The notes under the pieces: model-generated
What the model saw: the letters and a program-made list of their open reading frames with translations, nothing else
Database searches by the model: none
Told to the model about the DNA's origin: nothing
From: a virus
Length of the DNA: 64,000 nucleotides
Direction: 5' to 3' (one strand)
IMG/VR virus record: IMGVR_UViG_3300009388_000001
Coordinates: 1 to 64,000 of that record
Translations under genes and position numbers: made by a program
Shown: positions 47,633 to 49,778 of the stretch, piece by piece
How positions within the stretch are numbered: position 1 is the first letter of the stretch
Layout: each line of letters opens with the position of its first letter

Positions 47633-48150
47633 GGCTGCCTCGCATCAATTAATATAGTGCCTGAATCTTTCATTGAAATTACTTTGCCGGTTACAATCCG
47701 GCCGATATTCTTGCCTTTAACAATGATGCGGCCGTTTCTATAAAGCGACAAACCATCTCTATCGATTTCTTCTTCCTGCGGGGTAAATGTAAACGTAACA
47801 ATCTCACCGATGAAACATTCGGGACATTCGGCAAATAATTTAGCTTTTGTTGCATCGATCCACTCCCTTTCGGCAGCAACGTATCCGTTATAAGCAACCC
47901 AACCAAACGGATTAAGCCAACCGCCTATGTTATTTATAGTACGTAGTGTGGAGCGAAGTTTTTCCTGAATAGCTATTTCTTTCTTTATCAATCGATACTC
48001 TCTAGCTTCAAATGCTCCCCACGAACCGAACATTACTGTTTGAAAAGCTTCCTCTAAAATAAAACAATTAAAACCGATCAAGCCGACCAAACCTAAATAT
48101 AGAGCAAACCATTTTGGAAATTCTTTTAAAAATGTTTTCAGTTTTTTCAT
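47629..48150 (-). CDS. membrane protein (one TM)
   Basis: The ATG at 48150 (MKKLKTF...) avoids overlap with the tRNA-like gene. TM segment FALYLGLVGLIGFNCFIL. Confidence 0.5.
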   Translation of the reverse strand: MKKLKTFLKEFPKWFALYLGLVGLIGFNCFILEEAFQTVMFGSWGAFEAREYRLIKKEIAIQEKLRSTLRTINNIGGWLNPFGWVAYNGYVAAEREWIDATKAKLFAECPECFIGEIVTFTFTPQEEEIDRDGLSLYRNGRIIVKGKNIGRIVTGKVISMKDSGTILIDARQP

Positions 48151-48167
48151 TTTACTCTCCGGTATTC

Positions 48168-48286
48168 TGGTGGACATGGCCGGATTCGAACCGGCTTCTT
48201 CCGCATTCTCGTCAGATAGTCGGCTTGTACTTCGCCGTAGTTTCCGCTTACTGTAAGCGAATGCACTGCCATTATGCTACACGTCC
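48168..48286 (-). tRNA. tRNA-like gene of aberrant length (119 nt, encoded CCA)
   Basis: On the minus strand the acceptor stem is GGACGTG/CATGTCC, followed by U8-A9. The D arm is GCAT-AATGGCA-GTGC and the T arm is GCCGG-TTCGAAT-CCGGC, ending ACCA. There are 52 nt between the anticodon-stem halves TTCGC/GCGGA. Confidence 0.5.
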
Positions 48287-48290
48287 GTCA

Positions 48291-48378
48291 GCCACCGGAT
48301 TTTCTTGGTGAATATCCCCACAAGGGTTCTGTGATCTTATCTCGTCCCTTGCTTCGTGTTTCCCTCACATCCGGTGGC
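48291..48378 (-). ncRNA. long nested stem-loop between the GHKL gene and the tRNA-like gene
   Basis: A perfect 10-bp closing stem GCCACCGGAT/ATCCGGTGGC encloses inner helices GTGA/TCAC and CAAGGG/CCCTTG. Confidence 0.35.
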
Positions 48379-48383
48379 GGTTT

Positions 48384-49544
48384 TTAGTCAACATTTCTTA
48401 TTTTCCATTGCCTTGCCAACGGCAGCAATTCCTCCAGAATTCCGTCCCTGTTTTTTTTATTGTCCTTGCCCGACAGAAATCTTGTGATAATGCGCTTAAC
48501 GATTAAATACGGCGTGTCCTGCGTCGGTACTTTTGCCTTTGAGGAAGCGATATACGCGGAACTGCCGGTAACATATTCATAGACAATTTTTTCCAGAACA
48601 ACCGGTTCAAGATTATTGTATTTCTGCTTGACGAAATTGGCTTCTTCTTCGGATTGTACCGGAATGACATGCTTGCCGTACTTAGCGACAAAATCATTAT
48701 AATGAAGTGAGCAAAGAGCTTTATAAAGAAGATTGTCCTTATTATAAGCATGCTGCTCGTAATAAGAGACATCTTCGTATTTATCTTTTTGAAGTGAATA
48801 AATGAGATTGGCATAGGTAGAATCAAGATCATTGAACATTTGACCGGTTATCCATTTCAAATTGAACGCACCAACTTTCTGGCGATCACGGTCAAGTGTT
48901 ATGTATCTGGATTTTAAATTGTAGCCATAACGGAATTTTTCTTCAGGTTGAAATTCACAAACAAACAATCCTTCGACAAACAATTTTGATTTGTACTGGT
49001 CATCAAGAAGGATATCGCCGTAATGAGTAGTTAATTTTGATTCAATCTGATTAAGATAGAGACAGTTATTCTTAAAAGTTTTGTAATTTTCCGGAGTGAT
49101 GCCATCCAATTCAAATAATAAATTATCCGAAGGCTTTGAAGGGATAATTGAGATTGTCAGGAGCTCTGTTTCATACAAAGGAGAAAACTCAATCGCCGGC
49201 GCCCATATTTCGTTAGATGTGCGGATCCGGACTCTTGTTCCCATGCGCAAGAAAACAAGCAAAGCTAGCTTATAGCCTTCACCATACTTGCCTATGGCAT
49301 CCCGATTTTCAGCTTTGGTTGTTTCGCCCAGAAGAAGTGTTTTCTTTTCAAGGGAAGAGAGCTTATTGCCGATCGTAATGCGCTGTTTTTGCGGATTATA
49401 CGTAAAAATGATTTCAGCTTTATCATATTCATGATTGCGATCGATGACATTCTGCATTAATTCACGGAATGCCGCCCATTTTGTCCAGTGTGGAATGTAC
49501 TTGGGGCTTAGAGTAAGATAAAATTTTTCATTGCTGTTTTTCAT
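48384..49544 (-). CDS. GHKL (Bergerat-fold) ATPase-like protein
   Basis: N-box-like FRELMQNVIDR and a Gly-rich IGKYGEGYKLAL. 386 aa. Confidence 0.5.
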   Translation of the reverse strand: MKNSNEKFYLTLSPKYIPHWTKWAAFRELMQNVIDRNHEYDKAEIIFTYNPQKQRITIGNKLSSLEKKTLLLGETTKAENRDAIGKYGEGYKLALLVFLRMGTRVRIRTSNEIWAPAIEFSPLYETELLTISIIPSKPSDNLLFELDGITPENYKTFKNNCLYLNQIESKLTTHYGDILLDDQYKSKLFVEGLFVCEFQPEEKFRYGYNLKSRYITLDRDRQKVGAFNLKWITGQMFNDLDSTYANLIYSLQKDKYEDVSYYEQHAYNKDNLLYKALCSLHYNDFVAKYGKHVIPVQSEEEANFVKQKYNNLEPVVLEKIVYEYVTGSSAYIASSKAKVPTQDTPYLIVKRIITRFLSGKDNKKNRDGILEELLPLARQWKIRNVD

Positions 49545-49778
49545 TGTAAAATCCTTTCTGCCTAAAAGATTTTTATGTTGTGTGAGGGGGCCGCCGACTT
49601 GCTTTTTCTCCTTTGCTTACGACTGTTTCCTGTTTCCTACCCCCTCTGAATAAAAGAACACAAAGAAACAGAGTAAAATGAATACTACTATTTCATCAGT
49701 GGATAATGCCTCTATCACCCACCTTCCACTCCTTAAACAGCGGCTGAATCTTTTTTAATAGTTCAAGTTTTTCTGGTG

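Follow-up and report, generated by a model that had tools for sequence, protein, structure and literature searches.

The window, the whole 64,000-nt stretch of viral DNA analysed here, lies within a record of an uncultured phage; the record is complete, circular, 73.5 kb long and read with the standard genetic code. On its minus strand, a leftward run of small accessory genes contains a tRNA-shaped RNA gene between two protein genes, and this is the sole tRNA-like gene in the whole 73.5-kb genome. The locus comprises the following features:

48384..49544, minus strand: upstream gene, 386 aa, PHROG 6077
48291..48378, minus strand: 88-nt structured element, 4 nt upstream of the RNA gene (folding and a relative)
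48168..48286, minus strand: tRNA-shaped RNA gene, 119 nt including an encoded CCA (Rfam and sequence)
48280..48286, minus strand: 5' strand of the acceptor stem, predicted to pair with 48172-48178 at a probability of about 1.0
48263..48277, minus strand: D arm, 4 bp and a 7-nt loop, with A14, A15, G18, G19 and A21 (class I type)
48243..48261, minus strand: predicted hairpin at the anticodon position, 5-bp stem and 9-nt loop (folding)
48221..48237, minus strand: predicted extra hairpin 1, four G-C pairs and a 9-nt loop (folding)
48197..48216, minus strand: predicted extra hairpin 2, three pairs, tandem G-A mismatches, two pairs and a 6-nt loop (folding)
48179..48195, minus strand: T arm, five Watson-Crick pairs and a canonical T loop
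47629..48150, minus strand: downstream gene, 173 aa

The 386-aa protein shows GHKL-like motifs by eye and may be ATPase-like. The ribosome-binding site of the 173-aa gene (about 48155-48160) starts 7 nt past the CCA of the RNA gene. An in-frame ATG within the acceptor stem (48175-48177, minus strand) leads gene callers to a 182-aa downstream protein; translation more likely starts at 48150, which is preceded by a ribosome-binding site of its own. Look-ups of the neighbour proteins in the PDB and the ESM Atlas were uninformative, and promoter and terminator scans around the RNA gene stayed at chance level. An 8.6-kb Logan contig from run X1, possibly the source data itself, spanned the RNA gene with zero differences. 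In this RNA run, the whole region formed one unbranched contig of flat depth with no joint at the RNA gene, indicating that the gene is not an assembly joint. The X1 reads are probably DNA or the source sample, and hence silent on expression and splicing.

GC-closed hairpins flank the ATPase-like gene on both sides (48291-48378 and about 49580-49645, both on the minus strand) and share a purine-rich core, GGAAACA..CG..AAGCAA.GGA. Copies were found in related phages (L132 1255-1315, L133 1900-1965 and 3669-3757, L138 1845-1900, L140 and L147). The upstream type recurs before genes in several of these phages and had no Rfam match at gathering score. The hairpins are possibly a protein-binding or antitermination RNA motif.

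A previous sequence-only reading had described the RNA as tRNA-like, with canonical acceptor, D and T arms and an insertion in its anticodon region. Re-reading the letters confirmed its sequence, coordinates and parts, including an acceptor stem with 7/7 pairs (one G-U), a D stem with 4/4, a T stem with 5/5 and the encoded CCA. The acceptor pairs include G1-C72, G2-C71, A3-U70 and C4-G69, and the discriminator is A73 (48171). The Infernal search which that reading had proposed matched the Rfam tRNA model RF00005 with 50.9 bits (E 6e-10) and a local gap across the middle. Default ARAGORN missed the gene, and ARAGORN with intron search, also proposed earlier, returned only noise at relaxed settings. 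A tmRNA identity was rejected: the third acceptor pair is A3-U70 and not G3-U70, the permuted tmRNA model scored 14.5 bits against a cut-off of 47, and ARAGORN found no tmRNA.

All 16 acceptor, D and T pairs were intact and 17 of the 18 invariant positions were kept, the exception being A48. The 7-bp acceptor, the D arm with G18 and G19, the 5-bp T arm with its T loop and the NCCA end are all present; the anticodon arm lacks the canonical form of five stem pairs and an open loop of 7 nt. The Levitt pair (purine 15 with pyrimidine 48) is replaced by A15:A48, with A48 located at 48196 just before the T arm. The fetched IMG/VR loci contained A15:A48 twice among 153 normal phage tRNAs and not once among the 72 oversized phage tRNA frames. 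The U of an AACU that follows the first stem might replace the missing partner. Two points had escaped the sequence-only reading, namely that A48 stands opposite A15 and that TTCGC pairs with the first GCGGA.

We then analysed the fold of the middle region. As previously described, GCGGA is present twice and 52 nt separate TTCGC from the second copy. In the preferred fold (-40.9 kcal/mol), the acceptor stem and the D arm are followed by a hairpin of 7-8 bp with a closing loop of 3-5 nt in the anticodon position, two further hairpins and the T arm. For TTCGC, the pairing probability was 0.73-0.91 with the first GCGGA and 0.000 with the second copy, onto which it could be forced only at a cost of 6 kcal/mol. 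The arrangement formerly offered as an alternative, a 9-nt loop plus a 47-nt variable region, is the one preferred by this margin. The 9-nt loop (48243..48261) pairs further, leaving 3-5 nt around CAG, and at the DNA level the hairpin is a 15-bp palindrome. The second GCGGA (48200-48204) is absorbed into extra hairpin 2. Folding of the whole RNA gave z = -3.0. With the tRNA frame held fixed, the middle region folded better than 97-99% of dinucleotide shuffles (z -2.1 to -2.65, P 0.009-0.032), a modest excess. On these predictions, the best description of the extra sequence is a variable region of 47 nt that follows a zipped anticodon arm.

This placement bears on the headline of the sequence-only reading, that 45 nt intervene within the anticodon loop; this idea was not supported. 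We consider it highly improbable that the gene encodes a tRNA with a 45-nt protein-spliced anticodon-loop intron, to be matured into a 74-nt A34 tRNA (ACA or AGA). Deleting 45 nt did produce a cloverleaf that ARAGORN accepted, and in one register a U precedes the insert and a G stands at its end. However, the pre-tRNA fold that splicing requires was 6 kcal/mol worse, with a pairing probability of 0.000. As noted earlier, each 45-nt excision with a 5-bp stem and a 7-nt loop leaves A34; all of these products retain A48 and thus the broken A15:A48. Registers that would read Val(UAC) or Val(GAC) were rejected by folding tests and inspection, since stems must break. Group I introns of tRNA genes have a P3-P7 catalytic core and measure about 200 nt, archaeal and eukaryal protein-spliced tRNA introns have a bulge-helix-bulge at the splice sites, and the Cys identity of a tRNA involves U73. 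The insert of 45 nt is far below group I size and matched none of the Rfam intron models, even with E allowed to reach 10. Three loose bulge-helix-bulge-like hits were obtained, none of them at anticodon-loop splice sites. The complete phage genome had no match to EndA, RtcB or RNA ligase (PF01974, PF01139, PF09414). The excision products combine A73 with a 4-nt variable loop, so that neither Cys nor Ser identity fits; SerRS requires G73 and a long arm (PMC7609411).

Unexplained introns have been reported in tRNAs of Lak phages, and short phage tRNA introns are not new as a claim (PMC6784885). The 'enigmatic' introns of these megaphages lie in tRNAs with ordinary anticodons (Tyr GTA, Thr TGT, Phe GAA and Gly TCC), and alleles without the insert exist for the Thr tRNA (Devoto et al., 2019, PMC6784885). 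They resemble the 119-nt RNA in that a phage tRNA gene exceeds its expected length through extra sequence near the anticodon. In contrast, no excision from the 119-nt RNA restores an ordinary tRNA, and no intron-less allele was found for it. The RNA lends no support to a new bacterial splicing route.

Nine other phage loci (L014, L030, L031, L104, L112, L015, L007, L114 and L056) have 41-48-nt inserts at 27/28-28/29, with CAGCAA or CTGTTCCTAT near the 3' end. Once these inserts are removed, the anticodon arm is perfect again (in Thr, Asn and Lys tRNAs, among others), and no Ro60 was found in the contigs tested. An insertion at this position was rejected for the 119-nt RNA, which has no canonical loop on the 3' side. 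These loci are better intron candidates than the 119-nt RNA.

No homologue of the 119-nt RNA was found in any collection searched (IMG/VR, metagenomes, GTDB, phages and plasmids). Patterns for the 5' end, the D arm with the variable loop, the palindromic loop and the upstream hairpin recovered none from IMG/VR. A T-arm pattern retrieved one unrelated 3' end from the metagenomes, and a 5'-end pattern retrieved ordinary tRNAs (CAU, TTT) and coding matches from GTDB. Blastn against phages and plasmids matched only the T arm or chance words. Model R1, built on the 119-nt RNA, scored at most 44 bits, from the generic tRNA frame, and had no hit at E 1e-9 when run on 49 other viral records in full. 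In the absence of homologues, the extra arms offer no covariation test, and one sequence cannot show selection on them.

The flanking genes have relatives with 60-74% protein identity and are adjacent in four related phages, in all of which the 119-nt RNA is absent from the site. They lie 4 bp apart in L132 and L147 and overlap in L135. In L133/L134, a 118-bp gap separates them, which contains the 88-nt hairpin (77% identical) and no tRNA-like gene. Where this phage has the 119 nt, L133 has about 5 nt; the edges of the difference fall at the predicted mature ends, and the neighbouring DNA differs by 23-29%. The RNA is thus a unit gained or lost whole, as seen against one comparator that gives neither direction nor mechanism. 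Its absence in all close relatives indicated that it is dispensable. No oversized tRNA was present in 12 related phage records. Upstream of the ATPase-like gene, L133, the closest relative, carries an ordinary tRNA-Trp(CCA) (2209-2280) and a remnant of a T arm and 3' end (about 2170-2195), indicating that tRNA pieces come and go in this region. At the corresponding side of that gene, L135 (3836-3915) has a degenerate tRNA-like hairpin set with D-loop-like and T-loop-like words and no Rfam match.

A singleton missing from the same site in four relatives could be a recently acquired tRNA, perhaps tRNA-CAU-like, which was disrupted by local duplications or an insertion and is functionless, at most still cut by RNase P. 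The broken Levitt pair is consistent with this, as is the best GTDB match of the acceptor and D arm, an ordinary tRNA(CAU) (L163). The middle may have grown by local or slippage duplication, as suggested by six G[CA][CG][GA]A pentamers (P 0.0005) and a weakly periodic spacing of 10-11 nt (P 0.03), both post hoc tests; GCGGAA flanks the 45 nt in the manner of a target duplication. However, Tandem Repeats Finder detected no array within the gene, folding of the middle region exceeds chance, and the frame has one lesion only. At least two events would be needed, and any deletion in the variable region still leaves the 9-nt loop. No single deletion gives back an ordinary tRNA, indicating that more than one change occurred while the frame stayed intact. 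In a simple simulation that counted lesions over the 16 pairs and 18 invariant positions, the probability of at most one lesion fell from 0.43 at 5% neutral divergence to 0.10 at 10% and 0.02 at 15%. A single lesion is thus unlikely beyond about 10-15% neutral divergence, and a dead gene would have to be recent. We regard this origin as somewhat unlikely.

Extra hairpin 1 carries GGCGAAG (48230-48236), which matches the YrlA motif GNCGAAN0-1G, and a YUAY (CTAT, 48216-48219) leads into extra hairpin 2. Distances of 10 nt from the motif to the downstream YUAY and of 20 nt from there to the T arm match those of YrlA and of phage RNAs linked to Ro60. The chance expectation was 14% for the motif alone and 1.3% for the motif with YUAY, and the two spacings had 1.3% and 1.2% each (post hoc). 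A shortened Y RNA in tRNA order that docks host Ro60 (Rsr) through this motif is nevertheless quite unlikely. The complete phage has no TROVE gene, whereas 11 of the 12 arm-bearing contigs encode one. The Ro60-arm model R2 scored held-out copies at 26-39 bits and found nothing at this site at E 10. A Y-type fold was 9 kcal/mol worse, and the RF02553 match was limited to the T arm (9.6 bits).

YrlA (RF02553; Chen et al., 2014, PMC4201824) and the phage Ro60-arm RNAs of tRNA order share with the 119-nt RNA the D and T arms and GNCGAAG followed by YUAY. They differ in that the 119-nt RNA has neither a Ro60 gene in its genome nor the long docking helix that carries the motif and closes just before YUAY; its Levitt pair is broken and its order is not permuted as in YrlA. 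The 119-nt RNA does not belong to the Y RNAs on these features, and it is possibly a truncated derivative. A related proposal, very unlikely in our judgement, is that this Ro60-less phage acquired a Y-RNA-like tRNA mimic of minimal size as one exact unit of mature length, and that its exposed GGCGAAG hairpin would serve to engage host Ro60 or other tRNA-surveillance proteins. Separately, a covarying arm ending in GG-TTAT characterises the tRNA-order RNAs of L009, L024, L050, L051, L064, L068, L081, L089, L098, L100, L107 and L108; Ro60/TROVE is encoded in 11 of these 12 contigs and in 0 of 24 other oversized-tRNA contigs.

Among the features of LeuRS substrates are A73 and a long variable region. 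The 119-nt RNA has both, and its 9-nt anticodon loop (centre CAG) contains U33 and ends in AA, as would suit a charged tRNA with a long variable arm that misreads or frameshifts. Such a decoder is extremely improbable: the loop is predicted to be paired (0.70-0.91), the D arm is of class I type, position 48 is A, and the 47-nt two-helix region is far bigger than class II arms.

The two remaining options of the sequence-only reading, a tRNA mimic and a decayed tRNA, both stand, with the extra sequence better placed in the variable region. The intact tRNA outline, the zipped anticodon arm and the two small extra hairpins point to a non-decoding tRNA look-alike that is processed by the host, like RNA1 and RNA2 of phage T5, and may act as a decoy and as an mRNA cut point. 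We give this explanation about an even chance of being correct. In its favour count the frame with its single lesion, the better-than-shuffled folding of the middle region, the need for more than one change to reach this form from an ordinary tRNA, and presence or absence as a whole whose limits fall no more than about 5 nt from the mature ends. Precedents are the T5 RNAs and the 72 oversized phage tRNA frames in the fetched IMG/VR loci. The lack of a homologue, A15:A48, the absence in close relatives and the shortness of the extra hairpins count against it.

A 7-bp acceptor stacked on a T arm with NCCA is a substrate for RNase P and 3' trimming. The look-alike would be co-transcribed in the leftward accessory operon, cut by host RNase P at 48286 and trimmed by 3' nucleases to the encoded CCA, which would free a stable 119-nt RNA. 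As a by-product, the operon mRNA would be split: the message of the ATPase-like gene would keep the 88-nt hairpin, and that of the following gene would gain a new 5' end about 18 nt ahead of its start codon. With no readable anticodon, the RNA would be unable to read codons. It is probably poorly charged or uncharged, since it has no readable anticodon, no G3-U70 and no G73; only LeuRS is conceivable. The likeliest job, which is also the weakest step, would be to serve as a decoy, beyond the reach of anticodon nucleases, for host proteins that bind the elbow or the CCA end of tRNAs.

T5 RNA1 (144 nt) and RNA2 (125 nt) are annotated as 'tRNA-like stable RNA with unknown functions' (AY543070). 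Like the 119-nt RNA, they are phage-encoded and have a tRNA frame with D and T arms, an oversized multi-helix middle and no usable anticodon loop. There is no sequence kinship, as model R1 found nothing in the T5 region. The T5 RNAs lie in a large tRNA cluster, whereas the 119-nt RNA stands alone between two protein genes; stability is annotated for the former and is a prediction for the latter. A long variable region is also shared with allo-tRNAs and with irregular tRNA-like RNAs of five stems, some non-translating members of which have extra stems (Mukai et al., 2017, as reviewed in PMC7609411). Allo-tRNA membership was rejected, because the acceptor domain of allo-tRNAs is 8/4 or 9/3 (PMC7609411) and that of the 119-nt RNA is 7/5.

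A pattern scan of IMG/VR for oversized tRNA-like RNAs recovered 114 stretches in several families. A small family of tRNA-shaped RNAs in L127 (1044-1155), L128 (325-439) and L131 (2405-2519) has three arms in the D-to-T interval, including a second T-loop-like hairpin. L005 and about 37 similar loci (among them L017, L022, L028, L046 and L084) contain a highly conserved 113-nt tRNA-shaped gene in which the anticodon arm is one long hairpin and no excision yields a normal tRNA.

Oversized tRNA-shaped phage RNAs are annotated in T5 with no assigned function, and the 119-nt RNA most likely belongs to this kind, already known from phages and functionally unexplained. Being small, outside a tRNA cluster and matched by a relative with a natural empty site, it would be a simple object for tests of processing, charging and binding.
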